Made by a program: the position numbers and the translations under genes
Origin: a virus
Lineage: Duplodnaviria > Caudoviricetes
Reading direction: 5' to 3' (one strand)
Length of the DNA stretch: 64,000 bases
IMG/VR virus record: IMGVR_UViG_3300010162_000393
Coordinates: 1-64,000 of that record
Shown here: piece after piece, positions 5,256-64,000 of the stretch
How the letters are laid out: every line of letters begins with the position of its first letter
Position numbering within the stretch: the stretch's first letter is position 1
Notes under the pieces: model-generated
What the model was told of the DNA's origin: nothing
Databases searched by the model: none
Seen by the model: only the letters and a program-made list of their open reading frames with translations

Positions 5256-5302
5256 ATTTAACTTTTTTAAATAATAAATATAATCAGTTATAAATATACA
5301 AT

Positions 5303-5333: not shown

Positions 5334-5352
5334 ATTTTTCAACCTAATCGCT

Positions 5353-14001: not shown

Positions 14002-15240
14002 TTAATTGTGACATAATTTTGGAAATTTATTAGTTAATAATAACTTAATCGGGTTACATCCAAACCCTATACTGGCTGTCTGAAATACAGAATCACCAGA
14101 TGCCTTTCGCAATATGTTGAACGCAGCATTTACATCAGCATTTAACAGAATACCTTTCGAGGTTCTGAATAAACCCCGATTTACCCTTTTGCCAACATAA
14201 ACATCATGATGCCCAACCTCCTCCAAATCCAAAGAACTGCATTTTGACGTGTGAGATTCGTTGAAATCAACCAATCTTAGTCCTTGTCTTTCAGATTTGT
14301 ATCGCAACTGATTTATAAAAGGTTCAAATGGAATATTAACAAAATTTTGGTTTGTCTTTTTTCCAAGATTCACTTCCTGTTTCCAACCACTGTTGTAACC
14401 AACAATAATTGTGTTAATGTCGTGTTCAACACATTTGGAAACTATATTTTTGCTTGCCTTGTGTAAGTAATCCTTAACCTTGTTGTTGCGTTTCAAGGTT
14501 AGTTTTCTGATTTTTTTACTTGTTTTTCTACGGTGACATTTTTCTAAATTTGATTTTAATTTTGATAATTTCTTGTTATAAAACTGATTGATTGATTTCA
14601 ACGGTCTGCCGTTGATAATAAATGGTTTGGTTTCTGTGGAAATACAGGTTGCCAAATTATTGACACCAATGTCAATGGAAAGGTATTTTCCATTGTTTTC
14701 TTTTGGTTGTATAACAGATGTTTCGTAAACAACCTCTGCGACATAATATTCCGATTTTGGGATAAATCTAACTTGTTTGATTTGTTCTCTAGGGATATTG
14801 GTTTTCAATGGGGTAATACCCTCTTTTTTGGGAAATGTGATATAACCGTTTTTATACCCAAACTGACAATATGTATATATCAAAACGTTTCTTCCTTCAG
14901 TTTTGTGTTTATATTTTGGAAATTTTGGTTTTCCGTTAAAACCTGTTTTATTAGTTTTCCACTTTTTGATAGATTCAAAGTAAGATTTAAAATCTTTGTC
15001 AAGCAACATCAAGGTTTGTTGAGATGAGTGGTTGCTTATTGCTTTATAATCAACCTGATTTTCTGTTTTGAATTTTTTTTCTAATTCAGTGTATCTTATC
15101 CATTTACCGGTTTTTAGGAATTCTTGTTTTACAACATATAAAGCGGCGTTGTATAAGTTTTTCGACTTAAAACATGCTTCGTCTATCCGTTTATAAGACG
15201 GATGATTTTGTTTGATAATATGTTGTTCAACCAACTTCAT
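14002..15240 (-). CDS. tnpB: RNA-guided endonuclease TnpB family protein
   Basis: SKNLYNAALY N-terminus, RuvC-I SIDIGVNNL, IIVGYNSGWKQ, NESHTSK and RuvC-III NADVNAAFNI. Confidence 0.93.
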   Translation of the reverse strand: MKLVEQHIIKQNHPSYKRIDEACFKSKNLYNAALYVVKQEFLKTGKWIRYTELEKKFKTENQVDYKAISNHSSQQTLMLLDKDFKSYFESIKKWKTNKTGFNGKPKFPKYKHKTEGRNVLIYTYCQFGYKNGYITFPKKEGITPLKTNIPREQIKQVRFIPKSEYYVAEVVYETSVIQPKENNGKYLSIDIGVNNLATCISTETKPFIINGRPLKSINQFYNKKLSKLKSNLEKCHRRKTSKKIRKLTLKRNNKVKDYLHKASKNIVSKCVEHDINTIIVGYNSGWKQEVNLGKKTNQNFVNIPFEPFINQLRYKSERQGLRLVDFNESHTSKCSSLDLEEVGHHDVYVGKRVNRGLFRTSKGILLNADVNAAFNILRKASGDSVFQTASIGFGCNPIKLLLTNKFPKLCHN

Positions 15241-23384: not shown

Positions 23385-23435
23385 AATATTTTTATTTTAA
23401 AATTTAACATTTGGATAACAATAAAATTTTAACAA

Positions 23436-23448
23436 TTTTTTCTGATCA
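23436..23448 (-). promoter_or_regulatory. TGATCAGAAAAAA recurrent upstream motif
   Basis: Lies in the divergent intergenic region, about 52 nt upstream of the operon leading to RNA ligase and DNA polymerase. Confidence 0.6.
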
Positions 23449-23521
23449 CGTAACTCTTGTATTAGCAACCGATTTTTCTAAATTTACTATAAAAACACTA
23501 TTTATAAAAAAATTATTTAAT

Positions 23522-34371: not shown

Positions 34372-34379
34372 CTATTTAT
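34372..34379 (+). promoter_or_regulatory. CTATTTAT putative late-promoter motif
   Basis: Upstream of the giant fibre gene. Confidence 0.55.
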
Positions 34380-34436: not shown

Positions 34437-37400
34437 ATGGCATCAAAATTTTCTGTCAATCGTCATGCGACGCAAAAATACAGTGTGTATTCTCGCGTTG
34501 TTAATGATATTTCGCCCGTTGTTGTTGCAAGTACCGCTAAAAGTCCTAACGACATAATCTTCACGATAACATTTTACGTGACTGACTTCAATGATAAAAA
34601 AATTCCAGACGCTTCTGTTTCGATTGTATCACATGATTTCAAGATAATTAACCATTTCGATGGTAGTTATAAAGTTATAGATGTTCCGAATGGTAAATAT
34701 GAATACGTTGTTGAAAAAACGGGTTTTGTTGCGGTTGAAGGAGTAGTAACCGTAAGTGGAAGTGATTTAGAAGTACATGTAAAACTATGTGAGGTTCCAA
34801 GTAAAATCGTTAATGGTAATCTGAATTTCGTAATGAATGAGGAAATGTACCAGAAGTTTGGTTATGTTGGTAGCACACCGGGTACTTGGTCTGTTGTCAA
34901 AGGAGAACTTCCTAATGGTATTACATTTGATCATGATGGTATTCTTAGTGGTACGCCGAGAGCATTTGGTAAATTTGAAGTTACCGTAATGGTAGAAAAC
35001 TCTTGCGGTTCTGTAACAAAAGATTTACTAATTCAAGTATGTGCTGTTCCTGAAATTACAACTGTTGATTTTGTTCTACCTCACAAACAAACTGTGTCTG
35101 AACAATTAAGTTTTTATGGTAGTGAACCGGCAACATGGTCAGTAGAAGATGGTTTGTTACCAAAAGGTTTGTTACTTAATGGGCAAACTGGTGTTATTTC
35201 TGGTACTACAAAAGATTATGGAGATTTTGACGTTACGTTTAAGGTTGCCAATGCTTGTGGGGAAGATGTTAAAGAATTAAAAATAACAATATGTGCTAAA
35301 CCTAAAATTACGAGTAATGATGATACAAAATTCACTATGGGTGAAGAAGGTAGTGTACAATTAACTTCATACGGAAATCCTGGTGTATGGACTCTTTATA
35401 GCGGAAATTTACCTAATGGTTTAACATTATCAGAAGATGGTATTCTAAGTGGTACGCCGACAACTTTCGGAAAATTTGATTTTACTGTAAAAGTTGAAAA
35501 TGCTTGTGGTGAAGATAGACAATTTATGAAAGTTTGGATCTGCGGTAAACCTGAGGTGGTATCCGGTGATATGAGTTTTGTAATGGGGCAACCTGTGTCG
35601 CATCAATTACAATTTTCCGGTAGCAGACCTGGAACATGGTCAATTGTTGAAGGCGTATTACCAAAAGGATTAACATTGAACGCAGAAACAGGTGTAATTA
35701 GTGGAACACCGAAGGAATTTGGTGAAAGTAGTTTCACAGTAATGGTTGTTAACCCTTGTGGTGAAGCGACAAAGGTAGTAAACGCATCTTTGTGTGCTAA
35801 ACCAACCATTATGTCTTGTTGCAGCGGTTGTGACACAAACTTCGTTAAAGGACAAGAAGCGTCAATGCAATATGAAGCGTCTGGTTCTGCCGGTACATGG
35901 TCAGTTTTAGGTGGAATATTACCAACTGGTTTAACATTAGATCCTAACACAGGTATTATTAGTGGTACACCAACAGTAGGTGGTTACTATGAATTTACGT
36001 TGAAATTTACTAACCCTTGCGGCGAGGTAGAGAAATGTATGAGTTTATTCGTGTGTGCTGAACCTTCAATTAAAGGTAGTGGCGAAATTAGTTTTGCAAT
36101 GGGGCAACCCGGATCACATGAATTACATTTTGAAGGTAGTAGACCTGGTATATGGTCAGTATCAGAAGGTGTTTTACCGGCAGGAGTATCATTAAACGCT
36201 GAATTGGGAGTAATTAGTGGAACACCAACTGAATTTGGTGATTTTGATTTCACTTTAAAGGTTACTAACCATTGTGGTGAGTCAACAAAAGAAATGAATA
36301 TATCAATTTGTGGACAACCACAAATTACAAGTGCAGGAAATATCAATATATTGACGGGTGAATCTGTAAATATTCAATTAGAATCAAACGGAACACCTGG
36401 TGTATGGTCTGCCGAATACGGATTACCGGAAGGGTTATCTTTATCTGCCGACGGACTTATATCCGGTGAACCAACAGAATCTGGTAATTTTAATGTTTTA
36501 ATTACATTAACAAATGATTGCGGTGAAGCAAGTAGAAATTTCAACATTTTTGTATGCGCTGAACCGGAAATTTTAACAGGTGATTTTGATGTATTGCAAA
36601 ATACCCCAATGTCGAAACAATTACAGTTTGCTGGTAGCAGACCAGGAACTTGGAGTATTGAAGAAGGTTCTTTACCATGGGAATTGAAAATGGATTCTAA
36701 AGGGGTTGTTAGTGGTACACCTAAAAAAGTTGGATCGTTTAGCGTTCTTCTTAAAGTTAAAAATTATTGCGGTGAAGTAACTAAACCAATAGTTGTAACA
36801 TCGAAAAAAACATATAAAGCAACTTTCATTGTTAAAATGGAAGATGGTACAATGGTTCCGGATGCTAGTGTTGTTGTTGGTGGTTTTATTGTAACCAATA
36901 ATAATAACGGAACTTATGAAAGTTATCTAACTGACGGCGCACATGGTTTTACTGTTACAAAAGAAGGATACGAAGTAGAAGAAGGTGTTGTAGAAATAGA
37001 CGGAGAAGATGTAGTAGTAACTATAATATTATGTGTATTTCCAGAAATATTAAATGGGGATATGAGTTTTGTAATGGGAGTTGCTAAAGTTGTTCAATTG
37101 GAATCAACAGGTTCTGCCGGTGAATGGTCAATTCAAGGTGATTTACCGGAGGGTTTAACCTTTAATGCTACAACAGGTGTAATTAGTGGAACACCAGAAG
37201 AATTTGGTGAATTTGAGATTACATTAATAATGACAAATCCTTGCGGAAGCGTAAGTAAAGATATAGAAATTGTTATATGTGGCGCACCTGAAATTACAAG
37301 TTCAGACGAAATAGAGTTTGTAAAAGGTGAAAAATCTTCATATGAATTAGAATTTTTTGGAACAGACCCGGCAACTTGGGAAGTTTCAGAAGGAAGTTTA

Positions 37401-40400
37401 CCTGCTGGTCTAACGTTAGACGCTGCAACAGGTGAAATTAAAGGAACGCCGACAGTATTTGGTGATTTTGTATTTACTGTTAAGGTTACTAATGAATGTG
37501 GTTTTGACGAACAAGAAATTAGCATGTTTATATGTGCTGAACCGGAAGTTACAAGCAGTGGTACATTAAGTTTCGTAATGACAGAAGAACATTCGGAACA
37601 ATTAACATCTTCTGGAACACCAGGTGTTTGGTCAATCGTTACCGGTAATTTACCTGATGGTTTGTCTTTGAATGTAGCAACAGGTGTGATTAGTGGTACA
37701 GCAACCGAATTTGGTGATTTTACAGTAGTTGTGAGAGTTGTAAATGAATGTGGTGAAGCAACAAAAGAAACTGTTATTTCTGTTTGCGGATTACCTGTCG
37801 TTACAAGCGGTGATATGGAATTCGTAATGAATGAACCGGTATCACATCAATTAACTGCTGAAGGAACAGAAGGAACTTGGAGATTATTGTCAGGTAAATT
37901 ACCATTAGGATTAACATTAGATTCCGAAACAGGAATAATTAGTGGTACACCTACTGAATTTGGCGACTTCTCTATTGTATTGAGATTTACAAACGTTTGC
38001 GGTGTAGCAAGAAAAATACTGAACATATTCGTATGTGCAAAACCACAAATTACCAGTGCTAATAATATTAACTTTGCACTAAGCGATGAAGCATCATTCC
38101 AATTAGAATATACTGGTACACCAGGAACTTGGTCAGTAGTAGATGGTGATTTACCAGAAGGTGTTACATTGAAACCAACAACAGGTGTAATTAGTGGTAC
38201 TCCAGTAGAAGCAGGTAACTATTATGTTACACTAAAAATTGAAAATGCTTGCGGTGATGCAACTAAAAGCGTTAATATTTTTGTATGCGCTGAACCTGTT
38301 ATAATCGTTAGTAATATAGAATTTTTACAAAACGTATATGTATCGAAACAATTAGATTTTACCGGAAGTAGACCAGGAAAATGGGAAGTAGTTAGTGGTA
38401 GTTTCCCTGCTGGTATTACTTTGGCAACAAACGGTGTTGTTAGCGGAATTCCTACCGAAATGGGTAACTTTGAAGTTGTAGTAAAAGTTAAGAATCCTTG
38501 CGGTGAAGATACAAAAGAAATAAGTTTATTCTCTTGTGCAAAACCTGTTATTATTAATGATAATAATATAGCATTTGTAAAAGGTGAAGAATCTGCTGTT
38601 CAAATAGAAGCTATAGGAACAGAAGGAACATGGTCAATCGTAAGCGGTGCATTACCTAACGGTTTATCTCTCGACCCAAGTGGAGAAATTAGCGGTACTC
38701 CAACCGAAGGTGGAACATTTAAAGTAACTGTACAACTTGAAAATCCTTGCGGAGTAACCACCAAAATGATGGTTATCAACGTATGTGCAAAACCAATTAT
38801 CGTAAGCGGTGATTTGGACTTTGTACAAAATACTCCTGTATCTCACCAATTACGTTTTATTGGTAGCAGACCCGGAAAATGGTCAATAAGTGCAGGAAAT
38901 TTACCGGCAGGATTAAGTTTAGATCCTAATACAGGTATTATTAGTGGTTCAACACACGAATTTGGTGAATACAATCTAACAATTTCGGTTGAAAATGAAT
39001 GTGGTGTTGCAAATAAAGATATTATAATGAGCACCTGTTCTAAACCGGGAATTGTAAGCGGAGATATGAATTTTGTTATAAATGAAGAAGGATCTTCGTT
39101 GTTAGAAAATTCAGGGACAGCGGGTACTTGGTCAATTATAAGTGGTTCTCTACCTAATGGTTTAGAATTAGATGAAATTACCGGAGAAATTAGTGGTACA
39201 CCAACTGTATCTGGTATCTATACATTTACCGTAAAAGTAGTTAACTCTTGTGGTGAAGCAACCAAAGTAGTTAATTTATATGTTTGTGCAAAACCCGTAA
39301 TTTCGACTGGAGATTTATCCTTCGTGATGGGTGAAGCGGTATCACAAAAATTACAATATACTGGAACAAGACCTGGTGAATGGTCAATCGAAGGAGAGTT
39401 ACCTAATGGTTTAACTTTCAACGCAGAAACCGAAACTATCAGCGGAATTCCGAGTGAATTTGGTGAATTTGAAGTTATTTTAATAGTAAAGAATCCTTGT
39501 GGAGAAGCAAGTAAAACGATAGAAATTGTTATTTGTGCAAAACCGGTTATTACAAGCGACCATGCTGACTTTGTAATGGGAGAAGAATCTTCTGTTGAGT
39601 TGGAAGGAAATGGAACTGAAGGTGTATGGACAGTTGATAGCGGAGTATTACCTGAGGGATTGTCATTAAGTTCTGACGGTATTTTAAGTGGTACACCGGC
39701 GGTATCTGGAAACCATAGTTTTACTGTTAAATTCAAAAATGCTTGTGGTGAATCTATTAAAACTATCCTTATATACATTTGTGCTAAACCAACAATAGTT
39801 AGCGGAGATTTGAATATTGTGATGGGAACACCAATGTCACAACAACTAATATTTTCAGGAACAAGACCTGGAACTTGGAGTATCGAAAGTGGTAATTTAC
39901 CTACCGGTATAACATTAAGTGAAGATGGTGTTTTAAGCGGAACTACAACTGAATTTGGTGATTTTGATGTCGTTATAAGGGTGGAGAATCCTTGCGGCAT
40001 AGCATTGAAACCTATAACAATAGACACATGTGCTAAACCTACTATTACAAATAATAGTGATCTAACATTTGTAATGAATGAATATAGTAGCGATGAATTA
40101 ACCGCTTCTGGAACAGCAGGTGTTTGGTCAGTTATTGGTGGTAGTGTTTTACCGGATGGTTTAGAATTAGACGAAGAAACCGGTATAATTAGCGGAACAC
40201 CAACCGTTTCAGGTACATTCAATATAGTGGTAAAAATAGAAAACCATTGCGGTGAAGATATAAGATCAATTGCTATTCAAATATGTGCAAAACCTACTAT
40301 TACAAGCGGCGAATTAGATTTTGAAGTTGGAGTACATGGTTCTGAAACATTGACATTCACTGGTAGCAGACCCGGAACGTGGTCAATTGTAGAAGGTGCT

Positions 40401-43400
40401 TTACCTGCCGGATTGACATTGAATGGTGCAACTGGTGTGATTAGTGGAACACCTACCGAATTTGGTGAATTTTTTGTTGAAGTAAAAGTAGAAAACCATT
40501 GTGGTGAAGAAACAAAAGAAATTGAAATATTTGTTTGTTCAAAACCAGCTGTTACAAGTGGTAGTAATATGAACTTTGTAATGGGTGAAGCTGGTTCAGC
40601 ACAATTAACTTCTTCTGGAACAGAAGGTGAATGGGAAATATTCGCAGGAGAATTACCAGCAGGTTTAGAATTAGACGAAGAAACCGGTTTGATTTACGGT
40701 AATCCAACCGTATTTGGTAACTTCGCTTTCACTGTTATGGTTGTTAATCCTTGCGGATCGGCAACTCAAGAAATTAACATGTTCATTTGCGGAAAACCTG
40801 CCGTTATAAGCGGTGATATGGAATTTGTAATGGGTGAAGAATCAGAAGAACAACTAATGTTCTCTGGTAGCAGACCCGGAACATGGTCAGTCGTAGAAGG
40901 TGATTTACCAGAAGGATTAACATTAGACGCTGAAACTGGTGTAATTAGTGGAACGCCTACTGAATTTGGAGATATTGTATTCACGGTTAAGGTTGAAAAT
41001 CCTTGCGGTGAAGCAACAAAAGAAATAACCGCCGTTGTTTGTGGAAAACCTGTCGTTACGAGTGGAACTAATATGACTTTTGTAATGAACGAACATAGTT
41101 CAGAACAATTAACTTCTTCCGGAACCGAAGGTATTTGGTCAATCGACGATGGTGAACTCCCAATGGGATTAATATTAGATCCTGAAACAGGTGTAATTAG
41201 TGGAACACCATTGGTATTCGGAAACTTTGTTTTCACAGTAAAAGTTGAAAATCCTTGTGGAGAAGCAACCGAAGAAATTAACATGTTCATTTGCGGAAAA
41301 CCAGCTGTTTTGAATAGTACACATCCTAATTTTGTAATGGGTGAAGAAAATGAATTGCAGTTATTATTCTCTGGTAGCAGACCAGGAACATGGTCAATTG
41401 AAGAAGGTGAATTACCAGAAGGGGTAACGTTGGATCCTGAAACAGGTATAATTAGTGGTATTCCTACTGAATTTGGTGACTTTGAATTTACTGTAAAAGT
41501 TGAGAATCCTTGCGGTGAAGCAACAAAAGACTTTGAAATGTTTGTTTGTGCTAAACCTGAAATTATAAGTCCAGACAAATATGATTCTGTATTCGATGAA
41601 GAAATATTATTTCAATTAGAAAATACAGGTACTGAAGGTATATGGGAAATTACAGAGGGTGAATTACCTCTCGGATTAGAATTAGATGAAGAAGGTTTGA
41701 TTGTTGGTACACCAAGAGTATTTGGACACTTCAAGTTCAAGGTAATGGTTGTTAATCCTTGTGGAGAAGACGAAATGGAAATTGATATGTTCATTTGTAA
41801 GCTACCTGAAATTGTAAGTGAAGAATTTGATTTTGTATTAGGCGAAGAAAGTTCTGAAGAATTAACATTTATCGGTAGCAGACCAGGATCTTGGTCAGTT
41901 GTTGAAGGTGATTTACCGGCTGGGTTGGTATTAGACTCGGTAGAAGGAACAATCAGCGGAACAGCAACTGAAAAGGGTGATTTTAATATTACGCTAAAAG
42001 TTATTAACCCTTGTGGTGAAGATACAAAAGAAATAAAAATATTTGTTTGTGAAGAACCGGAGGTTACAAGCGGAGGATACTTTGAATTTGTAATGGGTAA
42101 TGAAGTTGAATTGCAATTAGAACATACTGGAACAGATGGTGAATGGTCGCTTGTTGAAGGTGATTATTTACCAGAGGGTTTAGAATTAAATTCTGAAACC
42201 GGATTAATTAGTGGAATAGCAACAGAATTTGGTAATTTCTACTTCACAGTAAAATTAACTAATTATTGTGGCGAAGCATATAAGGTAATTCAGATATTTA
42301 TGTGCGGATTACCTGAAATCCTAACAGAGTCTATGGGGTTTGTAATGGGTGAAGAAGATGATCATCAAATAGTAGCAACAGGTAGTATGCCTGGAACATG
42401 GTCAATTATAGAAGGTGTATTGCCAAATAGTTTTGTATTAAATACGAGCACAGGTATTATAAGTGGGACACTAACCGAACATGGAGAATTTCCTATAACA
42501 GTTAAACTTGTTAATTCTTGTGGTGAAACAACAAAAGAAATTATTATAACGGTTTGTCAAACTCCAACTATTACAAGCGAAAATGATCTTGAATTTGTAA
42601 TGGGTGAAAGAGTAACATTCCAGTTAACAAATGACGGAACAGCAGGTGAATGGGAAATTATAGACGGTGAATTACCAGAAGGTTTGAGATTAAACCCTTT
42701 AACGGGTGTAATTAGCGGAAGAGCAAGAGAATTTGGTAACTTTACTTTTACAGTGAAAATTGATAACCATTGTGGTTCAGACACACAAGTAATAGAAATG
42801 TTTATGTGTGGATTACCGGTTATTTTACACGGTAATATGAATTTCCAAATAAACGAACCGGGTTCTGATACATTTATTGGTGACGGAACACCAGGTACAT
42901 GGTCTATAGTTGGTGGTGGTTTATTACCAACAGGGTTAACATTGAATCCAACAACAGGTGAAGTTAGTGGAACTCCAACAGTAGCAGGGCATTTTGAACT
43001 TGTCGTAAAACTTGAAAATGATTGTGGAAGTATAATGCGCGATGTTGTGATATTTGTTTGCGCACCACCTGAAATTATTGGTGAAATTGATGATTTCTAT
43101 GTAATGGGTAGCGAAATATCACAAGAATTTCAATTTAGTGGTAGCAGACCTGGAGAATGGAGTGTTGTAGGTGGTGACTTACCAGAAGGTGTAACATTTG
43201 ATCCTGAAACAGGTATTTTGAGTGGTATTCCAACTGAACATGGTGAATTTATATTCACTGTTAAAGTAGAAAATCCTTGCGGTGAAGCAACAAAAGAAAT
43301 AAATATATTTATATGTCTTGAACCGGAAATTATAACAGGAGGGCTTGAATTTGATTTTAACGAATATGGAGAATTTGAGTTAGAGGTTATTGGTTCAGAA

Positions 43401-51827: not shown

Positions 51828-51830
51828 TAT

Positions 51831-51838
51831 CTATTTAT
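51831..51838 (+). promoter_or_regulatory. CTATTTAT motif in the 47-nt gap that splits an Ig domain
   Basis: Starts 4 nt after the giant gene's stop and precedes the ATG at 51875. Confidence 0.55.
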
Positions 51839-51874
51839 GAATAAAAGAAAAATAATATTTAAATATAAAAAATT

Positions 51875-54664: not shown

Positions 54665-54695
54665 TATAAAAATAATATAAAAAAATAATAATAAA

Positions 54696-57600
54696 ATGGC
54701 ACATTATCCATACAATGATTTACGTTTAGAATGTACAATAACCAATAGCGGAAATTCAAATGAATTTGTTGCAAAAGAGTGGGTTACACCAGCCGTACCG
54801 GTTGCAGCATGGGAGGGGACAAAAGAACCTATGTTAACTGGTTTAGCATTTCCCAAACCAACAAATTTGAGATATGCTAATATAACCAACCATGTCTATT
54901 CGCCAACAAGAAATACCGCATATTATTATAATAACCAAGTTATTCAATATTCAAGTGTATTAAGTCCAATTCGGTTAGTATATATATTGAAAATTACCGA
55001 TTTTATTATGACAAGTTGTACGGTTGGGTGTTTGCACCCAGACGGGGTAATATTTTTATGTAATAATAACACTAGTTCTTCAAGAGCAATATTAGTAAAG
55101 GAAATAAGTGAAGAACCATTTGCTGATTATGAAACAATACATAATTATCCGGGTGCTTTACCGGATACTAATGGTAATAGGAGACTTCATTTTGTTCATT
55201 ATTATGATAATAAATTCTATGCGCAAAATGGTGTAGTATATGATATGAATTATAACGAAATTGCTACCCATTTAGTTGATAACACAGCAAAAGTAGCACC
55301 CGTTAATCCAAAACTTCAACCAAATAGATGGTGGATTGGTACAGCTACTGCAAATGGTGGAACAAAATCGTGTTATATTTCAAATAATGATAGTGCGAAT
55401 AGTTATACAAATTCTTTATCTGTTTCCCATTTTTATCGTGATGTTGAAATTAATTCAACAACAACTGATCCAGCATCAATATCGTTTAATTGGAAAGGTG
55501 TTGGTGATACGACTTGGGGTTATTTACAGTTTCGTGTTATAGAAACTAGTGAAACGCCGGTACCAGGTACACTACCTTCAGGATCCTCTCTTGTTGGTAA
55601 TTTATTTAATAGTTCAGTGTGGATAAATAGAGTTGTTACTCTAGGTGAAATGTCTGGTGTAAAACGTATTGTGTTTACATGGCGTAATACCGCAAATACT
55701 ACTTACCAACCACCTGCTGCCGTAGATAACATTATTATTAAGACGAATGTTGGTCCAGATATTATTGAGGATTTTGAGAGCGGTGATGGTACAACACTTG
55801 ATAATTGGGTGTTTCCGGATCCTCTAGTTATATTACCACCAAATATATCATATTACGGTTTTAATACAGAAAGAGATATATTATATGGTTATAATGCTAA
55901 TCTATTGAATACAAATAATGGGGATGGAAAATTTCTTTGTAATATTCGTATTAATAATACCGGAAATTTAATTCTAGCTGTTTATGATGTTGTAAGTAAT
56001 AATGTTAAAGTGTTAAATAGCATAGTAACAAATAATATATCATATTTTGGTTATTATTTTGCGAATAATTGTGTTGTTGTATTAATGCATGATATTTTGG
56101 ACTCCCAAACACCAAGAATGGCAAAGGTTAAAATATATGATTTAATTTCCGATAATATAACGGAATTAGATATTAAACGATCAACCACTTTCACAACTTT
56201 TTATGTTAGACCAACATTTGATAAAAGATATGTAAACATTGCAACAAATCTTACTGTTGCTACTACACCACGCATATATGAAACATATTTTACATTTGTT
56301 GATACTATTGATAAGCGAATAATAACCAGAAACGGATCATATTCTTATAATAATAATTCTGGTAGTAACGATACTGCTCTTTCTTTTCATATGACTTATG
56401 CGTATGCTTTTATTGAATATGAAGGTGAATTTGTTGGTATCCATACAAAATTGAGTGATGGTAATGCGCTACATTCATTATGTGATGTTCCGGTAGTTCT
56501 TGGTGATAGAATATATTCATACGGACATACTTCAGCAAACCATCCTGTTTATTTTGTGGATAAAACGAATCAATTAACATTATTATCAACAAATGATAAT
56601 ACATATCAAGAACTTAATCCAACAACCACACCTGTATGGTTTTTACCTACTTCTAATCTTGTTTATTTACAATATAATAATAATATATATAAAATAGGTA
56701 TTTCTAATTTTTATGTTGGAACTAATAATTATAGCGTTTCGTTGGTTGTTTCGGTTTATGATGTTGCTTCTTATTCATGGAGTGTTGTTAATAAATTGAA
56801 TTTATCTAGTGGTAATAATAATAGTGATTTTAGAATTATTCGCGCATGTTTTGATGAAGATTATGTGTATTTATTAGTAAACTATGCAAATAGTACCGCA
56901 TTAAGAATAATTATATTTAATAAAATAACATACGAGTTAATATCAAATACTGATGCTCAACGTAATCAACCATTTTATATTAGTTTTAATAATACTCAAA
57001 CTGCTCTTTGGAATTTTAGTAGTAGATATGGAAATGGTAGTAGTAATTTGCGACCAACAATATCAACATCTAATATGTTTTATAACAATTTTTATCTTTT
57101 CTTTGACATTAGTTATACACCAGTCCCATTTATGATATATGATATGAAAACACGTATAATTCATCAAATGATGTGGGATGGTTGTAATAGTACAACCTCT
57201 GGACTATCTATACCAAGTAATACGGCTAGTAATTATACAATTACATTCGTTGAGTTGGATAATAATAAAATATTAGCTTCAGCGTTTTTTAATAATAATT
57301 TTAGTTTAATATTAGAACATGATTTATCTACAAGATCAACTATTTTGTTAAACCATTCAAACTGGAATGATAGTACTATGGGGCGTGAAAGAAAACTTGT
57401 ACTTGGTAATATTTATAGGGTTGCTGATCGTATATATATTAATACCACAGCAACCACAGGTGGTGTGGCATTTGATCTTGATTATAACCCTGTTTCTTTT
57501 AGTGGTATTACACCAACTCAAGATTATTCAGATTATTATCGTCTTAATTATAATAACATTACACCTCATTATTTTGTAAATTCAGATAACACAATAATAA

Positions 57601-60008
57601 AAGATAATGATGTTATAACTGTAACAAATATTGATTCCGGATATGTTTTAAGAACACATCTTTATGTGGATGGTATGTCATGTGTGTTATGTGGAAGAAC
57701 TAACGATAAACCAAGATTATATCTTTTAAATGAAGATTTTTCAGTTACATTTTTACGTGAATATAATGAAAGTAGTATTTCTCATACCAGTAATAATAAT
57801 ATTATTAATAGAAATGTTTGGAATATTGGAAAAAATGTTTTATATTCCGGTAGGATACCGAATACATTGCCTTTGAAAAGGATACCTTCAAACGTTTCCT
57901 CAATGAGTTATATCAACCCAATGAGAAATCATGATTCATTTTATCTTGTTTCATTCGCTAATGGTGGTATTATGAAACAAACTGGTCCAACAACATTTAC
58001 ATTAACTACTGCGCCTGTTGAATATACATATAGCGCATTTGGTATAAGCACAAATACAATACTTTTACGTGGAAGATATGCTGGTACTAGTAACGATTTG
58101 TGGTATAAATGGGATGAATTTAACACTCCTGCATGGGTTCAATGTGGTGGTACTAATCCATCTTCTCCAACACTTGTTACACAAAATACTTGTACTGATA
58201 GGATTTATATTATGAATAGTAGTCAAATATTTAAATATGATCGTAATACAAATACTATTAATTTATTTCAAACTTTGGGTGGTTTTATTGCTACTGATTT
58301 GTATATACAACATAAAGATCACAAAGAAGGTAGAATGTATTTTGTTAGAAATAATATACTATATAGAGAATCAGATGATTTATTATCAATAGTAGAAGTG
58401 TTAAGAAGCGAAACTAATATTGTTAATGTTATTATTTGTCCCGGAGATTTGTTGTATTATGCTAATACAAGGGATGTGTTTTCATTTAATGGAGTAACAC
58501 AAAATAGAATTGGTACAACAGGGTCAACGACTAATATTGTTGATATAGCAATTGATGGTGATGGAGTGATTTGGGGTATAACAGGTAGCACAACATTTAA
58601 TATTAAAAATGGTGTTATAAGTGAAAGTATTACAATGTGTAGATATATAACTGTATCAAGTCAAACTAATCAAAGAGAATTATCAGCGACTTATGGTGCA
58701 CTAACAAGACTTATAATTGAACCAGAACATAATAGAAGGTTTATGTTTAATACTAATTATCAATTTTATTGGTCTGATTTATACAATATTAATATAACAC
58801 GTACTCAACGAACTATTGATACCGGAAGGATAAGATTATTTTTATATAATAATTATATATTTAGTATTAGTGATACTGAAGTAGTGGTTTGGTTCGTAGA
58901 TGTCTACGGGAATCTCGTGTCTTCAGAATTTGATTGGCAAATGGGTAACGATAAAAGACATCTCGTTTGTTATAAACCGTTTGCGGTTGGTGCTGATACA
59001 CATATATGGGATAACCCTAACCCAAGTGGTGTAATTGAAAATATGCACACCAGTGATATAACTGATGTGATAACCGACCAGTATTCTGGTTGGATGCAAA
59101 TAGCTGGTAATTGGGAATCTTTTAATGCAATTGTACCTAGAAAGTCTAATGAATATTCATATAATAGTAGACCAAGATTTTGGGATCAAAATATTAAAAT
59201 TAATAATATGGAAGTTGCTAGCAGAGTTTCGATATGGACAGGAACTGAAAGTATATATTTACCACTTAATATTATTGCTGTAACAAATAAACTTGTTGGT
59301 TCAGGAAATGATTTAAGGATTTCATTGACTGTAAAGGGAAGTGGGTATATGTACCTTAGTTGGGGTGTAGATTCACCAATACAAGTAGAATTGACCGGTT
59401 CTGAACAAACATTCGATTATCAATACACAGCAAAAAATTTTCATACAATAACTATCTATGCAAATGATGTTACATACTTTAAATGTACTAAAGCTAAATT
59501 AATGCAGGTGGATATATCGAAAAATAAAACATTAACACGTATAGATGTTCAGGATAATTTATTATGGGAATATGAATTAAATCATATTATTGAACATCTA
59601 CCACCAGTAACAGGAGGAACAATTAAAATTTGTGATAATCCTGCTTCAGATACTTGTGATAGATTTAGTGTTATTGAAAAAGGATGGGATTTTGATGCAT
59701 ATCAGGATAATATTGATATCACAGAAGTCAATAATTCTATTGTAAATATTTATGATACACATGGTGATATAGATGATAATGAAAATAATGTTAAAACCAT
59801 TGAACAAGCAAGAGCAAGTGTTATGCGCATTCTTGCAACCACATATCCTGTGGATTTTAATGATGTGAAACCAACGTTAGAAGACATTGCGTTTGTTCCT
59901 GCCGGAGGTGGTGTAAACGGTTATTATGATTTTTATATGAAACTCAATAAGTGTGAGGGAGCAGAACAGATCGTAGGACCATTAAGATTAGATATTTGGG
60001 CAGTTTAA
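54696..60008 (+). CDS. Large N/T/Y-rich beta-structure protein (1770 aa), probable distal receptor-binding component
   Basis: Contains a WWIGTA...PPAAVDNI beta-sandwich, propeller-like strands and a short C-terminal LRR-like segment (VDISKNKTLTRIDVQDNLL). Confidence 0.8.
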   Translation: MAHYPYNDLRLECTITNSGNSNEFVAKEWVTPAVPVAAWEGTKEPMLTGLAFPKPTNLRYANITNHVYSPTRNTAYYYNNQVIQYSSVLSPIRLVYILKITDFIMTSCTVGCLHPDGVIFLCNNNTSSSRAILVKEISEEPFADYETIHNYPGALPDTNGNRRLHFVHYYDNKFYAQNGVVYDMNYNEIATHLVDNTAKVAPVNPKLQPNRWWIGTATANGGTKSCYISNNDSANSYTNSLSVSHFYRDVEINSTTTDPASISFNWKGVGDTTWGYLQFRVIETSETPVPGTLPSGSSLVGNLFNSSVWINRVVTLGEMSGVKRIVFTWRNTANTTYQPPAAVDNIIIKTNVGPDIIEDFESGDGTTLDNWVFPDPLVILPPNISYYGFNTERDILYGYNANLLNTNNGDGKFLCNIRINNTGNLILAVYDVVSNNVKVLNSIVTNNISYFGYYFANNCVVVLMHDILDSQTPRMAKVKIYDLISDNITELDIKRSTTFTTFYVRPTFDKRYVNIATNLTVATTPRIYETYFTFVDTIDKRIITRNGSYSYNNNSGSNDTALSFHMTYAYAFIEYEGEFVGIHTKLSDGNALHSLCDVPVVLGDRIYSYGHTSANHPVYFVDKTNQLTLLSTNDNTYQELNPTTTPVWFLPTSNLVYLQYNNNIYKIGISNFYVGTNNYSVSLVVSVYDVASYSWSVVNKLNLSSGNNNSDFRIIRACFDEDYVYLLVNYANSTALRIIIFNKITYELISNTDAQRNQPFYISFNNTQTALWNFSSRYGNGSSNLRPTISTSNMFYNNFYLFFDISYTPVPFMIYDMKTRIIHQMMWDGCNSTTSGLSIPSNTASNYTITFVELDNNKILASAFFNNNFSLILEHDLSTRSTILLNHSNWNDSTMGRERKLVLGNIYRVADRIYINTTATTGGVAFDLDYNPVSFSGITPTQDYSDYYRLNYNNITPHYFVNSDNTIIKDNDVITVTNIDSGYVLRTHLYVDGMSCVLCGRTNDKPRLYLLNEDFSVTFLREYNESSISHTSNNNIINRNVWNIGKNVLYSGRIPNTLPLKRIPSNVSSMSYINPMRNHDSFYLVSFANGGIMKQTGPTTFTLTTAPVEYTYSAFGISTNTILLRGRYAGTSNDLWYKWDEFNTPAWVQCGGTNPSSPTLVTQNTCTDRIYIMNSSQIFKYDRNTNTINLFQTLGGFIATDLYIQHKDHKEGRMYFVRNNILYRESDDLLSIVEVLRSETNIVNVIICPGDLLYYANTRDVFSFNGVTQNRIGTTGSTTNIVDIAIDGDGVIWGITGSTTFNIKNGVISESITMCRYITVSSQTNQRELSATYGALTRLIIEPEHNRRFMFNTNYQFYWSDLYNINITRTQRTIDTGRIRLFLYNNYIFSISDTEVVVWFVDVYGNLVSSEFDWQMGNDKRHLVCYKPFAVGADTHIWDNPNPSGVIENMHTSDITDVITDQYSGWMQIAGNWESFNAIVPRKSNEYSYNSRPRFWDQNIKINNMEVASRVSIWTGTESIYLPLNIIAVTNKLVGSGNDLRISLTVKGSGYMYLSWGVDSPIQVELTGSEQTFDYQYTAKNFHTITIYANDVTYFKCTKAKLMQVDISKNKTLTRIDVQDNLLWEYELNHIIEHLPPVTGGTIKICDNPASDTCDRFSVIEKGWDFDAYQDNIDITEVNNSIVNIYDTHGDIDDNENNVKTIEQARASVMRILATTYPVDFNDVKPTLEDIAFVPAGGGVNGYYDFYMKLNKCEGAEQIVGPLRLDIWAV

Positions 60009-60041
60009 ATTTAAAAATAATACAATAAAAATATAATAAAA

Positions 60042-63000
60042 ATGATAAAACAGGATTTAATAGAATTTATTGAAACCAGAGTATTTCAAAATACAGATAA
60101 TACAATAAGAGCACAAGCTGTACAGGAAGCGTTATACGAAATTGTTAAAAATGTGTGTGGAAAAGCAAAATCACGCGAACCATACCTGATTACCAAAATC
60201 AATGAGTATATTTATCCAAATTTGACTTCTGATATTACAGATATTGTGTTGCAGGATATTCTTGTATTAATGGTTGATGAATTATGGTTTCATGAAGACT
60301 CAAAAAATGACCTTATAACATACATTCAAGAAAATGTTGTAGCAGAGATAACCGGTGATATTTTGAGCGTTGTGTTGGTTAAAATGGTTAACGATCTGTG
60401 GTATGATCCGGCAGAGTTTTGTTCTTGTGAAATACCGTTGGCAGCAGGAACCGTTGGGGATAATATTAGTTGGAAAATATGTTCTACATATAAAGCATTG
60501 TGTTTGGAAGGTGCCGGTGATATGTTAAATCTTGAACACGGACAATACGGGTGGGAGAGTTATAATAACGATATTAAAATAGTTGTTATTGATAATGGAA
60601 TTACTTCCATTGGAAATTCTGCCTTTTCGTTTAATACAAATCTAATTGATGTTGTTATTGGAAATTCTGTTAGAATAATAGGTGAGAAGGTTTTTCAAGG
60701 TTGTAATAAATTACCTTTAATAATTTTTCCGAATTCGGTTACTTCTCTTGGTCAATATATTTTTGATGGATGTAGTGAATTATCAATGATTGAAATGAGT
60801 GGTTCGATTAGATTTATTGGGGATTCTGCATTCCGTAATTGTATAAATTTAAGTGAAATAACCTTACCAAACTCAGTGACAACTATTGAATCATTTGCAT
60901 TCAAAGGTTGTATAAATTTAAGTGAAATAACCTTACCAAACTCAGTGACAACTATTGAAGACGGTGTTTTTGATGGTTGTAGCGGTTTGCTTGATGTTTA
61001 TATGGGATTTTCGACTACAAAAATTGGTGATTTTGCTTTTAATAATTGTATAAATTTAAGTAAAATTATAATACCGGATTTTGTAACCTATATTGGAACA
61101 TCATCTTTTCAAAATTGTGCTAATTTAATTGAAGTAATTATACCATTTTTAACGGAAGTAATAGGGGAATATGCCTTTATGGGTTGTGGTAAATTAACCA
61201 GATTAACTATTGGGGATTCGGTAACAACAATTGCTAATAATGCTTTCAGCGGTTGTGTAAATGTAGAAAGAATCGCAAATTATGCTATGGTACCACAAAT
61301 AATTAATATTAATGTGTTTGATGGTATAAATAAAAACACTTGTTTATTATTGGTTCCTGGGGAAGCATTTGATTTGTATAAAGAAACTGATGTTTGGAAA
61401 GATTTTATAAATATTGAAAAATTTGACGTTGAAGAAGAATTTTGTACATGTAATAACCCAATAGTAGAAAATATTCTTGGTTCACAATCCAATAAATGGT
61501 GGATTGGTACATCTACTGCAAATGGTGGAACAAAGTCATGTTATATTTCAGATAATAATAGTACAAATACTTATAATTCCACAACATCTATTTCACATTT
61601 TTATCGCGATGTTGAAATTAATTCAACAACAACAAATCAAGCAGTACTATCGTTTGATTGGAAGTGTGCCGGATGGTCATCTAGTAACGGTTACTTAAGT
61701 GTTCGTGTTATAGAGACTACTGAAACACCTATTCCCGGTGTGTTTCCTTCAGGGACATCAATTGTTGGTAATTTATGGAATAATCGGTCAACATGGTTAA
61801 ATAGGGTTGTTAATTTAGGTAATATGTCTGGTGTAAAACGTATTGTGTTTACATGGTATAATACTTCTGGTGTTGATAACCCACCTGCTGCCGTAGATAA
61901 CATTATTATTAAGACGAATGTTGGTCCAGATATTGTTGAGGATTTTGAGAGCGGTGATGGTACTACACTTGATAATTGGGTTATTAATGGGGAAACTGGA
62001 CCAAAATGGAAAATATGTCCAAATAATACTTTGTGTATCACTGGTAATGGTATTATACCCAATATACCAAATGGTACACTTTGGAAATCCACAAGTAATT
62101 CTGCTATTATTCAAAGAATTGTTATTGGAAAAAATATCACTTCTATTGCCGCTAATGCTTTTGAAAATCTTAAAAATGTAATGAGCGTAAGTATTGGAAA
62201 TTCTGTTACTGTTATCGGTAACTATGCTTTCAGTGGTTGTGATAATTTAAATGATGTGAATATTGGAAATTCTGTTATAAATATTAGTCAATATGCTTTT
62301 CAGAACTGTTTTAATTTACAGAGAATAATTATACCGAATTTGGTTATTACTATAGATAACTATGCTTTTAGTGGTTGTAGTAGTTTGATGAATGTAATTA
62401 TTGGTAACTCTGTTGCAAGTATTGGTAACTATGCTTTTAGTGGTTGTAGTAATTTACCAAGAGTAGTAATCCCTAATTCAGTAATAACTATTGGTAATTA
62501 TGCGTTTTCTAATTGTAGAAAATTAACAGAAATAACAATACCAGATTCTGTAACATCAATTGGTAGCAACACATTTTCTTATTGTACTAGTTTAACTAAT
62601 GCTATTATTGGAAATTCTGTAACATCAATTGGTAATTTGGTTTTTGAGGCATGTCGTGATTTAACAGAAATTACAATTGGAAGTTCTGTTAGTTCGATTG
62701 CATCAAACGCATTTTCAGGTGGTTCTAATTTAATATCTAATAGATGGCATGTTGGTACAGCAATAAATAATGGCGGTAATAAATCGTGTTACATTAGTAA
62801 TAATAATAAAGATAATACTACTTCAGGTATTTCATCTAGCGGAATGGTATATTTTTATCGAGACATTAATATTAATTCAACAGAACAAAATCGTGCAACA
62901 ATTTCATTTGATTGGATGTGCGTTGGACCAAATTGGGGTATAGATTTTGACGCATTGAGAGTGTATCTCGTAGATACCAATATAACCCCTGTGGCGAACA

Positions 63001-64000
63001 CCTTATTAACTAATGAATTTATTCTTCTAAATGGAAATCAACAAGGTACTAATAATACTTCATGGCAGAACTATAATTATGTGACACCAATAATGCAAAA
63101 GGAGATGCGCCTTATATTTGGTTGGAGAAAAAATAGTGGTTTAACTAGTAATTATACAGCAGCAATAGATAATGTTCGTATCAAAACAAATATCGGAGCA
63201 GATATTTTTGAAGATTTTGAAAATGGAAACGGTGATAGATTAGATGGTTGGGAAATTGTAAACGGTGGGTTTATGATGAATTTGAAAAAAATTACTATAG
63301 TAGATGGTGATAACCCTTTAACACTTAATAATATATTTCCGAATACAGTTGAAGAAGTATATATAGGTAGAAATATATATAATTCTTCAGCATCACCTTT
63401 TGGTGTCGGCGTTAAAAAAGTTACTATAAATAATAATGTTGCTGTACTTGGTGATTCTCTTTTTTCTAATTGTGTTAATTTATCTGAAATCACTCTTCCT
63501 AATTCACTTATATTAATTAATAGTTATACATTTAGCGGTTGTACTTCTTTATCTAGTATTATTATACCTAATTTAGTTGAGTATATTAATCCTAGTGCAT
63601 TCCAAAATTGTACTTCTTTATCTAGTGTTACCATTGGAAATTCGGTAAAAACTATTAGTACTTCTGCTTTTAGCGGTTGTACTTCTTTATCTAGTGTTAC
63701 CATTGGAAATTCGGTAGAAACTATTGGTACTTCTGCTTTTAGCGGTTGTACTTATTTATTTAGTGTTATCATTCCAAATTCGGTAGAAACTATTGGTACT
63801 TCTGCTTTTAGCGGTTGTACTTCTTTATCTAGTGTTACCATTGGAAATTCAGTAAAAACTATTAGTGCTTCTGCTTTTAACAATTGTAATAGTTTAGTAG
63901 AAATAACAATCCCTAGTTCCGTTTTATTAATTGAAAATAATTGTTTTAACGGGTGTACTAATTTGAAAAAACTAACTATAGATGGTACTAATAGCAGTGA
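60042..64000 (+). CDS. BspA-type leucine-rich-repeat (LRR_5) protein, truncated by the window end
   Basis: ATG at 60042 (MIKQDLIEFIE). Absent from the ORF track, consistent with a frame open to the window end. Many 23-aa I-x-IPNSVT-x-IG-x-x-AF-x-GC-x-x-L units, two caps, and two inserted WxxGTA...AAxDN modules. Confidence 0.9.
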   Translation, partial: MIKQDLIEFIETRVFQNTDNTIRAQAVQEALYEIVKNVCGKAKSREPYLITKINEYIYPNLTSDITDIVLQDILVLMVDELWFHEDSKNDLITYIQENVVAEITGDILSVVLVKMVNDLWYDPAEFCSCEIPLAAGTVGDNISWKICSTYKALCLEGAGDMLNLEHGQYGWESYNNDIKIVVIDNGITSIGNSAFSFNTNLIDVVIGNSVRIIGEKVFQGCNKLPLIIFPNSVTSLGQYIFDGCSELSMIEMSGSIRFIGDSAFRNCINLSEITLPNSVTTIESFAFKGCINLSEITLPNSVTTIEDGVFDGCSGLLDVYMGFSTTKIGDFAFNNCINLSKIIIPDFVTYIGTSSFQNCANLIEVIIPFLTEVIGEYAFMGCGKLTRLTIGDSVTTIANNAFSGCVNVERIANYAMVPQIININVFDGINKNTCLLLVPGEAFDLYKETDVWKDFINIEKFDVEEEFCTCNNPIVENILGSQSNKWWIGTSTANGGTKSCYISDNNSTNTYNSTTSISHFYRDVEINSTTTNQAVLSFDWKCAGWSSSNGYLSVRVIETTETPIPGVFPSGTSIVGNLWNNRSTWLNRVVNLGNMSGVKRIVFTWYNTSGVDNPPAAVDNIIIKTNVGPDIVEDFESGDGTTLDNWVINGETGPKWKICPNNTLCITGNGIIPNIPNGTLWKSTSNSAIIQRIVIGKNITSIAANAFENLKNVMSVSIGNSVTVIGNYAFSGCDNLNDVNIGNSVINISQYAFQNCFNLQRIIIPNLVITIDNYAFSGCSSLMNVIIGNSVASIGNYAFSGCSNLPRVVIPNSVITIGNYAFSNCRKLTEITIPDSVTSIGSNTFSYCTSLTNAIIGNSVTSIGNLVFEACRDLTEITIGSSVSSIASNAFSGGSNLISNRWHVGTAINNGGNKSCYISNNNKDNTTSGISSSGMVYFYRDININSTEQNRATISFDWMCVGPNWGIDFDALRVYLVDTNITPVANTLLTNEFILLNGNQQGTNNTSWQNYNYVTPIMQKEMRLIFGWRKNSGLTSNYTAAIDNVRIKTNIGADIFEDFENGNGDRLDGWEIVNGGFMMNLKKITIVDGDNPLTLNNIFPNTVEEVYIGRNIYNSSASPFGVGVKKVTINNNVAVLGDSLFSNCVNLSEITLPNSLILINSYTFSGCTSLSSIIIPNLVEYINPSAFQNCTSLSSVTIGNSVKTISTSAFSGCTSLSSVTIGNSVETIGTSAFSGCTYLFSVIIPNSVETIGTSAFSGCTSLSSVTIGNSVKTISASAFNNCNSLVEITIPSSVLLIENNCFNGCTNLKKLTIDGTNSS
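63590..63880 (+). repeat. Near-identical 69-bp tandem LRR-coding repeats
   Basis: The tgtacttctttatctagtgttaccattggaaattc...actatt.gtacttctgcttttagcggt unit is repeated. A second near-exact pair occurs at about 60840-60960. Confidence 0.85.

Follow-up and report, generated by a model that had tools for sequence, protein, structure and literature searches.

A candidate giant adhesin fiber encoded by four consecutive genes of an uncultivated large myophage, with an Ig-like domain predicted to be shared between two of its proteins

Introduction

What does a phage build from four consecutive giant genes when boundaries between them run through the middle of a protein domain? The question is raised by a block of four consecutive, co-oriented genes, g1 to g4, in the viral record IMGVR_UViG_3300010162_000393 of IMG/VR (Duplodnaviria; Caudoviricetes), which by the open reading frame (ORF) listing span 32.3 kb, or ~24% of a 137-kb contig. 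The stretch of DNA analyzed herein, referred to as the window, is the first 64 kb (positions 1 to 64,000) of this one 136,864-bp contig; positions in the wider contig are given as genome coordinates. On balance we favor the view that the block encodes one giant multi-subunit adhesin fiber, most likely located on the virion of an uncultivated large myophage that has a T4-type terminase and a probable Bacteroidota host. The proteins of g1 and g2 would form the stalk, a chain of Ig-like beads that we estimate would extend fully to ~0.3 micrometre at ~4 nm per domain, while those of g3 and g4 would form the distal end and bear binding modules of the types found in Bacteroidota surface adhesins. 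The g2 and g3 proteins would be joined by two-strand donor-strand complementation, in which g3 completes the last Ig-like repeat of g2, designated R5.

All four genes lie on the plus strand, g1 at 34437-51827 (5796 aa), g2 at 51875-54664 (929 aa), g3 at 54696-60008 (1770 aa) and g4 at 60042-66728 (2228 aa), the last running past the window, which holds 1319 of its residues. An earlier description made from the letters alone, here called the sequence-only reading, had listed four co-oriented genes of 5796, 929, 1770 and more than 1300 aa, as the ORF listing confirms, and had proposed a very long Ig-chain fiber assembled from several polypeptides. In substance that proposal is supported by the phage nature of the genome, by the conservation of the split between g2 and g3 and by the predicted completion of the split domain in trans, with the virion location deduced from context.

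A domain split between g2 and g3

The comparisons below depend on one relative. The sole true homolog of g3 is P0005, a protein of 1653 aa that is 37% identical over 73% of the length by BLAST (45% over aligned columns) and occurs on three contigs, one of them a 367-kb JGI contig. The locus of this relative comprises three genes in the same order, encoding a 5195-aa He_PIG protein (P0039), the g3 homolog and a 2121-aa homolog of g4, and they are followed by a 1316-aa gene on the opposite strand, where the tail sheath gene stands in the present contig. Residues 1-3460 of g1 align colinearly with P0039 at 58% identity, without any difference in the first 17 residues, and the C-terminal part of P0039 aligns in the same way with g2 at ~40%. 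The He_PIG repeat broken between g1 and g2 here is intact there. The synteny comparison that the sequence-only reading had suggested as a check thus finds the gene order kept and the g2|g3 split conserved at the same domain position.

The g2 protein ends in five Ig-like repeats, R1 to R5. R1 to R4 measure 94-118 aa and each ends in a strand of the pattern h-x-h-x-C-x-h followed by one further strand, whereas R5 (54428-54661, plus strand; 78 aa) is without its last two strands, including the one that bears the Cys. The pattern missing from R5 is carried by the start of g3 as LRLECTITN, within the putative donor strands at 54696-54800 (plus strand; MAHYPYNDLRLECTITN...EFVAKEWVTP). In the relative the giant protein stops at the same alignment column as R5 and the g3 homolog starts MAHYPYKNLKFECTL, the two g3 proteins having the start MAHYPY..L..ECT in common. 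A hidden Markov model (HMM) of the repeat, built from R1-R4 of both phages and 105 positions long, is covered in a complementary manner, with positions 4-65 matched by R5 and positions 72-97 by g3 residues 8-33, the latter in register but weak (5.1 bits).

Structure prediction of the junction pairs was another check put forward with the sequence-only reading, and for g2|g3 it predicted an interaction. Residues 734-929 of g2 and 1-60 of g3 were modeled as a complex from two-row alignments in three runs, together with three controls. The interaction prediction score from aligned errors (ipSAE) was 0.71, 0.71 and 0.72, compared to 0.00 in all three controls, the best of them included, and this mark is reached by 58 of 80 solved complexes and by 2 of 110 mismatched pairs. 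Contact agreement between the runs was at least 76% and the predicted local distance difference test (pLDDT) value of the partner was at least 54. In the model, g3 residues 9-17 pair with g2 residues 884-891 (VYYSWKIY) and g3 residues 26-35 with g2 residues 853-860, which are the C-F and A-G pairings of an Ig sandwich. We propose that R5 is completed in trans by the first ~33 residues of g3, a prediction supported by the model and by the complementary coverage of the repeat.

No pilin family was matched by g2 or g3 in Pfam and profile searches, and no precedent for donor-strand complementation in phage fibers, or for virion proteins with BspA-type leucine-rich repeats (LRRs), was found in the searchable literature. 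A fused g2-g3 form was not seen among longer proteins up to 4645 aa, a range that excludes the protein of the relative and is uninformative. The tripeptide AHY stands on both sides of the g2|g3 spacer and was considered as a target-site duplication, an idea that was rejected as the relative has LADF and MAHY at these places; by this comparison the repetition is probably a coincidence. Just past the donor strands, g3 aa 55-98 (window 54858-54989) form a stretch of 44 residues, PTNLRYA.I.NHVYSPTRNTAYYYNNQVIQYSSV.SPIRLVY, that is ~93% identical in two proteins otherwise ~40% identical. Such conservation may mark a key interface, for example for g4 or for the virion. An AlphaFold2 (AF2) model of g3 aa 1-208 from a two-row alignment had a pLDDT of 39 and was unusable.

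The proposed stalk

Together g1 and g2 comprise ~60 He_PIG Ig-like repeats, ~9 CarboxypepD_reg-like (CPD) domains and five further Ig-like repeats. The Pfam scans covered g1 aa 1-130 and 3700-5796 and the whole of g2, g3 and g4, and the He_PIG run between these parts of g1 was mapped by an own-repeat HMM, built from 16 g1 repeats and used across g1. By this HMM there are 58 complete He_PIG repeats in g1 (8 + 31 + 15 + 4) with CPD domains between them as 1 + 1 + 2 + 2, one repeat split between g1 and g2, and one more in g2. In order, g1 (34437-51827) contains an N-terminal peptide and a CPD domain, eight He_PIG repeats, one CPD, 31 He_PIG, two CPD, 15 He_PIG, two CPD, four He_PIG and a 59th repeat cut off after HMM position 32, while g2 (51875-54664) continues with He_PIG positions 37-85, one He_PIG repeat, three CPD domains and R1-R5. 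Membership in He_PIG (Pfam PF05345) is clear for both proteins, at 488 bits for g1 (16 stretches within aa 3700-5796) and 43 bits for g2 compared to a cut-off of 24. The CarboxypepD_reg family (PF13620) is likewise recognized in g2 (46.8 bits) and in g1 aa 3700-5796 (44.1 bits) compared to a cut-off of 32.3, with the N-terminal copy of g1 just under it at 30.8 bits. The g1 protein is highly acidic, with 916 D/E and 260 K/R residues (net charge -656), and there are about two Cys in each repeat.

The proximal part of this stalk, g1 aa 1-3460, is conserved in the relative, and the part distal to it would have been remodeled rapidly, by duplications of [2 CPD + He_PIG] units and by the addition of a beta-propeller, MAM-like modules and LRR arrays.

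The break between g1 and g2

The boundary between g1 and g2 also falls within a domain, although its history appears to be a different one. By the own-repeat HMM, g1 ends at position 32 of 85 of a He_PIG repeat and g2 begins at position 37, and Pfam likewise places the start of g2 at position 46 of 96 of the He_PIG profile (match 46-81, at the N-terminus of g2). The end of g1 (51696-51824, plus strand) is made up of the N-terminal third of the repeat (HMM positions 1-32) and a ten-residue tail, FGKKDEPIAH. At the DNA level the break coincides with an inserted cassette of ~89 nt (51790-51879, plus strand) consisting of the codons of the tail, a TAA stop, the octamer CTATTTAT (51831-51838), an A-rich leader and ATG-GA. 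Aligned at the DNA level with two intact paralogous repeats and with the intact ortholog of the relative, the insertion is clean, and g2 SKLINEW is homologous to SKTLGEW of a paralog. The frame of g2 differs from that of g1 because the length of the insert, 89, is 3x29+2. There is no second copy of the cassette in the genome. Since the corresponding He_PIG repeat of the relative is intact, these comparisons indicate that the g1|g2 split is derived, recent and lineage-specific. A designed split at this boundary is not supported, the break being a recent lineage-specific insertion into a gene that is unbroken in the relative.

The same reading had named assembly errors at the gene breaks as an outcome that would count against it, and for g1|g2 the break is reproduced in independent assemblies. 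The exact 929-aa product of g2, with the same spacers and neighbors, occurs on at least five contigs, which come from various samples and were put together by different assemblers (JGI, ENA/MEGAHIT and Logan). Of these, three were read as DNA and match the window at 99.99-100% identity across the break. A pair of proteins of 4622 and 1154 aa, considered as a second natural break, was rejected because it corresponds to g1 minus 19 residues (aa 4623-4641) in one draft contig.

The octamer CTATTTAT of the cassette is one of 22 copies in the genome, of which 18 lie in non-coding DNA (~5% of the genome) and 15 lie 6-119 nt upstream of a start on the same strand. The genes so preceded include g1, g2, the sheath gene, the gene before that of the major head protein (MCP) and a 1244-aa structural gene. 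The copy before g1 (34372-34379, plus strand) is 65 nt from the g1 start and is a candidate promoter element. An extended consensus, CTATTTAT-N4-AA, is also matched by the copy in the cassette. In the window the sites include 23498, 34372 and 51831, and in the rest of the genome 71009(-), 77045(-), 77072, 77495, 79593, 85715, 98762, 102287, 104129 and 117110, at distances of 6-65 nt from the genes that they precede. The octamer is unlike the T4 late element TATAAATA and unlike the Bacteroidota -7 consensus, and in the locus of the relative it occurs at chance level. A scan for sigma-70-type promoters gave nothing above chance. From its positions we infer that CTATTTAT is a candidate promoter of the phage, possibly a late one, and the cassette, by its insertion into a He_PIG repeat, would probably provide g2-g4 with an internal promoter and a start 17 kb into the operon.

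Reassembly of the two He_PIG halves is a separate matter, as they may or may not come together. If they do not, the break would be a recent lesion, with g1 alone serving as the appendage and g2-g4 forming a separate or free complex, or with the distal part in the course of being lost. In favor of this are an intact gene in the relative, a split seen in one near-clonal population only and the non-native residues that the cassette adds at the cut (FGKKDEPIAH on g1 and MD on g2). It is less readily reconciled with the position of the cut in a loop, which leaves two complete and complementary halves with no residue lost or duplicated, or with g2, g3 and g4 being still open throughout 4927 codons. 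Moreover, the cassette supplies both a start and the upstream motif of the phage, so that g2 should be expressed, and samples from at least four datasets show no allele but the split one. We consider the lesion unlikely, though it is to be taken seriously, and prefer the multi-subunit fiber, in which g2 to g4 remain parts of the appendage.

The proposed distal part

The g3 protein (54696-60008) opens with the putative donor strands, and aa ~40-190 behind them are strongly conserved. An inserted MAM-like module comes next, then a long body rich in beta structure, a cap resembling LRRs and a C-terminal stretch of ~100 aa that varies. No Pfam, NCBIfam or PHROG family was found in g3, and for its body the ESM Atlas gave only leads below 0.9, to beta-propeller lipoprotein families. 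Searches of IMG/VR (with g2 and g3) and of INPHARED returned no further relatives, a tblastn search with g3 against 50,697 phage records gave no match, and a scan of JGI metagenome contigs and an exhaustive profile search of 1.84 billion protein representatives, with the g3 N-terminus, recovered only the known relative.

In g4 (60042-66728), helical N-terminal repeats are followed by BspA-type LRR_5 arrays that are broken by two MAM-like modules. The LRR_5 family (Pfam PF13306) is recognized at 1228 bits compared to a cut-off of 27.7, over 14 stretches. Judged by their sequence, the N-terminal repeats (60042-60416, plus strand; aa 3-40, 47-86 and 89-125) are of helical type; the second and third are clearly related (z 8.7) and the first weakly (z ~1.7). 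The triplicated helical module with which the last gene was said to open therefore holds clearly for two repeats and weakly for the remaining one. ESM Atlas scores for the g4 N-terminus were under 0.8. Over aligned columns g4 is 45% identical to the 2121-aa protein of the relative, in which the N-terminal repeats are kept. Nothing at g3|g4 points to a split domain, and helices such as those read at the start of g4 cannot supply missing strands. The claim that each of the first three genes breaks in the middle of a domain whose strands are supplied by the next gene consequently holds for g1|g2, as a mid-domain break, and for g2|g3, as a mid-domain break with predicted completion, but not for g3|g4.

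Modules have been inserted at several places in the block. A seven-blade beta-propeller (50034-50921, plus strand; g1 aa ~5200-5495) follows the first strand of a He_PIG repeat. Its blades are of ~41 aa with a motif (IFNGKLYMP...TLEIFDL) that occurs seven times, it matches Pfam beta-propeller profiles at 32 bits, its internal DNA repeats are 73-78% identical, and it has no counterpart in P0039 of the relative. A second module, of ~180 aa and resembling MAM and cleaved-adhesin domains, is present in three copies on the plus strand, at 55308-55835 (g3 aa ~205-380), 61464-62021 (g4 aa ~475-660) and 62709-63281 (g4 aa ~890-1080). Copies 1 and 2 share 81% DNA identity and copy 3 is more divergent. 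As all three fall in alignment gaps relative to the relative, they were evidently inserted in this lineage. At the amino acid level the module is 42-49% identical to repeated modules of Bacteroidota proteins that have type IX secretion system (T9SS) or CHU_C sorting domains. No Pfam profile (PF00629 or related) was matched by the module regions of g3 or g4, and some of the bacterial homologs of the module carry PF00629. An AF2 model of the module (pLDDT 86.5, 27-row alignment) was matched by VIA-align to the MAM-like domain of InhA2 (Z 12.1, rmsd 2.8, 137 aligned), meprin MAM (Z 10.1, rmsd 3.1, 132 aligned) and the K1 cleaved-adhesin domain of gingipain Kgp (Z 9.7, rmsd 2.7, 125 aligned). Carbohydrate-binding modules (CBMs) came next in the ranking at Z ~8, and the CBM-like domains of phage tail and neck proteins were weak matches. 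On the model, the fold class of the module is clear and its family is not. The sequence-only reading had the propeller and a circularly permuted beta-sandwich inserted in loops; the propeller in a He_PIG repeat and the existence of the sandwich module are confirmed, but permutation is unsupported because the alignments of the module to MAM and cleaved-adhesin domains run in sequential order. A 1056-aa protein on a 3.5-kb JGI contig (P0018) has LRR_5 repeats and two MAM-like modules, as in g4, and may mark a donor lineage or another phage.

Location and host

The genome is that of a phage by its hallmark genes, which encode a T4-type TerL, a family-B DNA polymerase, a DnaB-like helicase, SbcC and an RNA ligase as well as the MCP and the tail sheath protein. 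The TerL is only ~25% identical to the terminases of Flavobacterium, cyanobacterial and rhizobial myophages. The host is probably a member of the Bacteroidota, since Shine-Dalgarno-like motifs are found upstream of only 5 of 98 genes, leaders are 85% AT and the homologs of the inserted modules are in Bacteroidota. Bacteroidota initiate translation without Shine-Dalgarno pairing.

Several features point to a location on the virion. The tail sheath gene (genome 67017-70976, minus strand; 1319 aa) comes directly after g4 and is convergent with it, and g1 and g2 have an upstream motif in common with structural genes. The N-termini of the four proteins (g1 MASKFSVNRH, g2 MDSKLINEW, g3 MAHYPYNDL and g4 MIKQDLIEF) have, by reading, no signal peptide and no hydrophobic segment, and the Pfam scans of g1-g4 revealed no T9SS, CHU_C or other sorting or anchor domain. 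He_PIG repeats occur in proteins of cultured phages that are annotated as tail proteins, and by analogy with these, and from the neighborhood, the motif and the lack of export signals, we infer a virion location. In PHROGs, g1 gives only a repeat-level match to a 'tail protein' family (phrog_8763), g2 and g3 give none, and g4 matches families of unknown function.

Alternatively, the infected cell could make the same four proteins as adhesins that it displays or that are set free when it lyses, for instance to attach to particles, mucus or cells nearby. He_PIG arrays, BspA-type LRRs and MAM-like modules are all of bacterial surface adhesin types, the closest homologs of the modules are bacterial, and no homology of the four proteins to known virion proteins was found. 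Against this, the four proteins have no signal peptide, by reading, and no T9SS C-terminal domain or other anchor. The block adjoins the sheath gene and has an upstream motif in common with structural genes, and 24% of the 137-kb contig would be a large outlay if the function were not structural. Phage tail and head appendages, moreover, often bear Ig-like and CBM-like domains. Hence we regard a non-virion role as quite improbable, and a virion-borne fiber remains the preferred reading.

Acidic loops and the spacers between the genes

The sequence-only reading also described four acidic FxxDFxxDF-like loops in the scaffold. Three of them lie in He_PIG repeats of g1, namely loop 1 (GSFDDDFDDDFD; 46971-47006, plus strand), between the W-strand and the LPxGL of a repeat; the acidic/polar loop 2 (GGDFNNDFSNDFS; 49803-49841, plus strand), at the same position; and loop 3 (GGSFDDEDFDESFE; 51522-51563, plus strand), also at that position, with a different spacing and not matched by the strict motif. 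Loop 4 (GGSFSELHFDNSFD; 52838-52879, plus strand) is inside the third CPD domain of g2 and is the sole loop with a counterpart in the relative (GGGDFFYKNYDISFN). No acidic F/D loop is present in the 49 He_PIG repeats of the relative, whose insertions at that loop are unrelated in sequence. All four loops thus exist where they had been placed, but the strict motif fits only two of the four and g1 as a whole is acidic.

If these loops were docking sites, the locus would resemble a scaffoldin, with cargo such as g4 plugging in by its three-repeat helical head. The placement of three loops at the same He_PIG surface loop, with a similar one in a CPD domain, speaks for this, and the N-terminal helical region of g4 is indeed conserved. 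The loops and the head do not, however, form a co-conserved pair, because in the relative the head is kept and the three acidic loops of the He_PIG repeats are missing, while the sole loop that the relative does keep lies within a domain and may be structural. Together with the looseness of the motif, the extreme acidity of the whole g1 protein and the failure of the Pfam scans to find any cohesin or dockerin family, these observations make the scaffoldin-like reading and its docking pair very unlikely.

The three spacers measure 47 nt (g1|g2), 31 nt (g2|g3) and 33 nt (g3|g4), are more than 85% AT and contain no terminator-like hairpins. Bridging of the breaks during translation by frameshifting, readthrough or bypassing, to give fusion proteins, might be suspected from the -1 frame of g2 relative to g1, the common frame of g3 and g4 and the AHY codons that flank the g2|g3 spacer, but it can be set aside as extremely improbable, since readthrough or frameshifting cannot join genes when every spacer has several stops in each of the three frames. 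In addition, the -1 frame does not open until after the g1 stop, the relative is without matching take-off and landing codons (LADF... versus MAHY), and g2, g3 and g4 are each provided with an ATG and an A-rich leader.

Weighing the fiber and comparison with known systems

A number of points weigh against the multi-subunit fiber as we propose it. The presence of the four proteins in virions is deduced from context, and no homology of any of them to a characterized fiber, baseplate-attachment or capsid-decoration protein was found. The promoter role of CTATTTAT is deduced from its position. The alignments behind the g2-g3 complex had two rows only, and completion of an Ig fold may be an easy task for the predictor. 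Conservation of the g2|g3 split involves two genomes, because there is one relative lineage in all of the collections searched. The contigs that carry the g1|g2 break come from one near-clonal population, and therefore they exclude an assembly error but show no selection for that split. The last ~100 residues of g3 are not conserved in the relative while the N-terminus of g4 is. Accordingly, operation of the joint in vivo, a binding function and the promoter role are put forward here as probable rather than as observed properties. An extension of the proposal, that phage fibers can be assembled via domains deliberately split between genes, with g2 and g3 welded in this way and a second joint just made by a promoter-bearing mini-cassette, is possible but more doubtful than the fiber itself.

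Among known appendages, the long tail fiber of T4 (gp34-gp35-gp36-gp37) is similar in that consecutive co-oriented genes encode products joined end to end in order, in that the phage is a myophage with a T4-type terminase, and in that a conserved proximal part is followed by a variable distal one. However, no sequence relationship was found, and T4 uses trimeric beta rods that need chaperones, whereas here Ig-like beads would be strung into a stalk of the kind usual for monomeric adhesins, one joint being a domain split over two genes. T4 Hoc and the He_PIG tail proteins of Rhodococcus phages and of Tenacibaculum phage pT24 provide examples of virion-exposed Ig-like domains to which a weak adhesion to glycans or surfaces is ascribed, with He_PIG in annotated tail proteins, but these have a few domains rather than the 60 repeats and 5796 residues seen here, and no capsid-binding or tail-attachment domain is recognizable in the present proteins.

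Bacterial fibrillar adhesins are also built with tens of He_PIG repeats as a stalk and with LRR, propeller and MAM- or CBM-like modules towards the end, and the nearest relatives of the repeats and modules described herein are bacterial. The present proteins differ from them in being encoded by a phage, in four genes, without a secretion signal or anchor, and in having two conserved Cys per repeat. For the joint itself the closest parallels are chaperone-usher pili and the type V pili of Bacteroidota, in which an incomplete Ig-like fold is completed by strands of the next polypeptide and the joint becomes part of the fold. In the predicted g2-g3 joint, by contrast, two strands (F and G) would be given rather than one, to form a single heterotypic link between giant proteins and not a polymer, and no homology to a chaperone, usher, protease or pilin was found. 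With the cellulosome scaffoldin only the general idea of a long modular carrier is held in common, as no cohesin or dockerin was found here and the proposed loops and head are not conserved together.

Other features of the contig

The exact products of g1, g2 and g3 are also recorded on a 268,981-bp JGI contig, which may be a concatemer; alternatively, the genome may in truth exceed 137 kb. Both ends of the present contig are repetitive, with a ~34-nt direct repeat at window positions 1-100 and a ~30-nt tandem repeat within an ORF at genome 136700-136864, and as the contig begins and ends in repeats the assembly probably breaks at them.

In the sheath protein the match to sheath profiles is confined to the last ~330 residues, and residues ~600-680 match an Hc2/baseplate-wedge-like Ig-type segment that recurs in the 1244-aa protein at genome 117138-120872. 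The MCP gene is at genome 105597-107582, and directly after it two adjacent large genes (750 and 477 aa; genome 107670-111389, minus strand) match HNH/homing-endonuclease PHROGs. An ORF at window 14002-15240 (minus strand) matches PHROG transposase families (phrog_506, 2.6e-61). Just upstream of TerL, and slightly overlapping it, is a 912-aa ORF (window 23411-26149, plus strand) that has no PHROG match and has CTATTTAT in front.

Implications

All of the domain families in this locus are already known, and giant He_PIG adhesins are common in bacteria. What is unusual is the phage setting and the scale, a conserved gene boundary that runs through a domain with predicted completion in trans, and the fission of a gene by a promoter-like cassette. 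If the g2-g3 joint is real, nature would here have split an Ig-like domain to link two proteins of a phage appendage; the principle is that of pili, and the split-domain tags of protein engineers are similar. The insertion of the cassette is a dated and directional example of gene fission in which both halves of the domain are intact. If both joints work, tandem beta-sandwich stalks would withstand division into chains that are expressed separately, and giant genes could be re-partitioned by small regulatory cassettes with their function retained.

The locus as a whole shows segmental duplication, plug-in binding modules and splitting by a small regulatory cassette. That about a quarter of a 137-kb contig is spent on what we propose to be one adhesin, built with the module types of the probable host, bears on how phages may adhere in habitats rich in particles or mucus.

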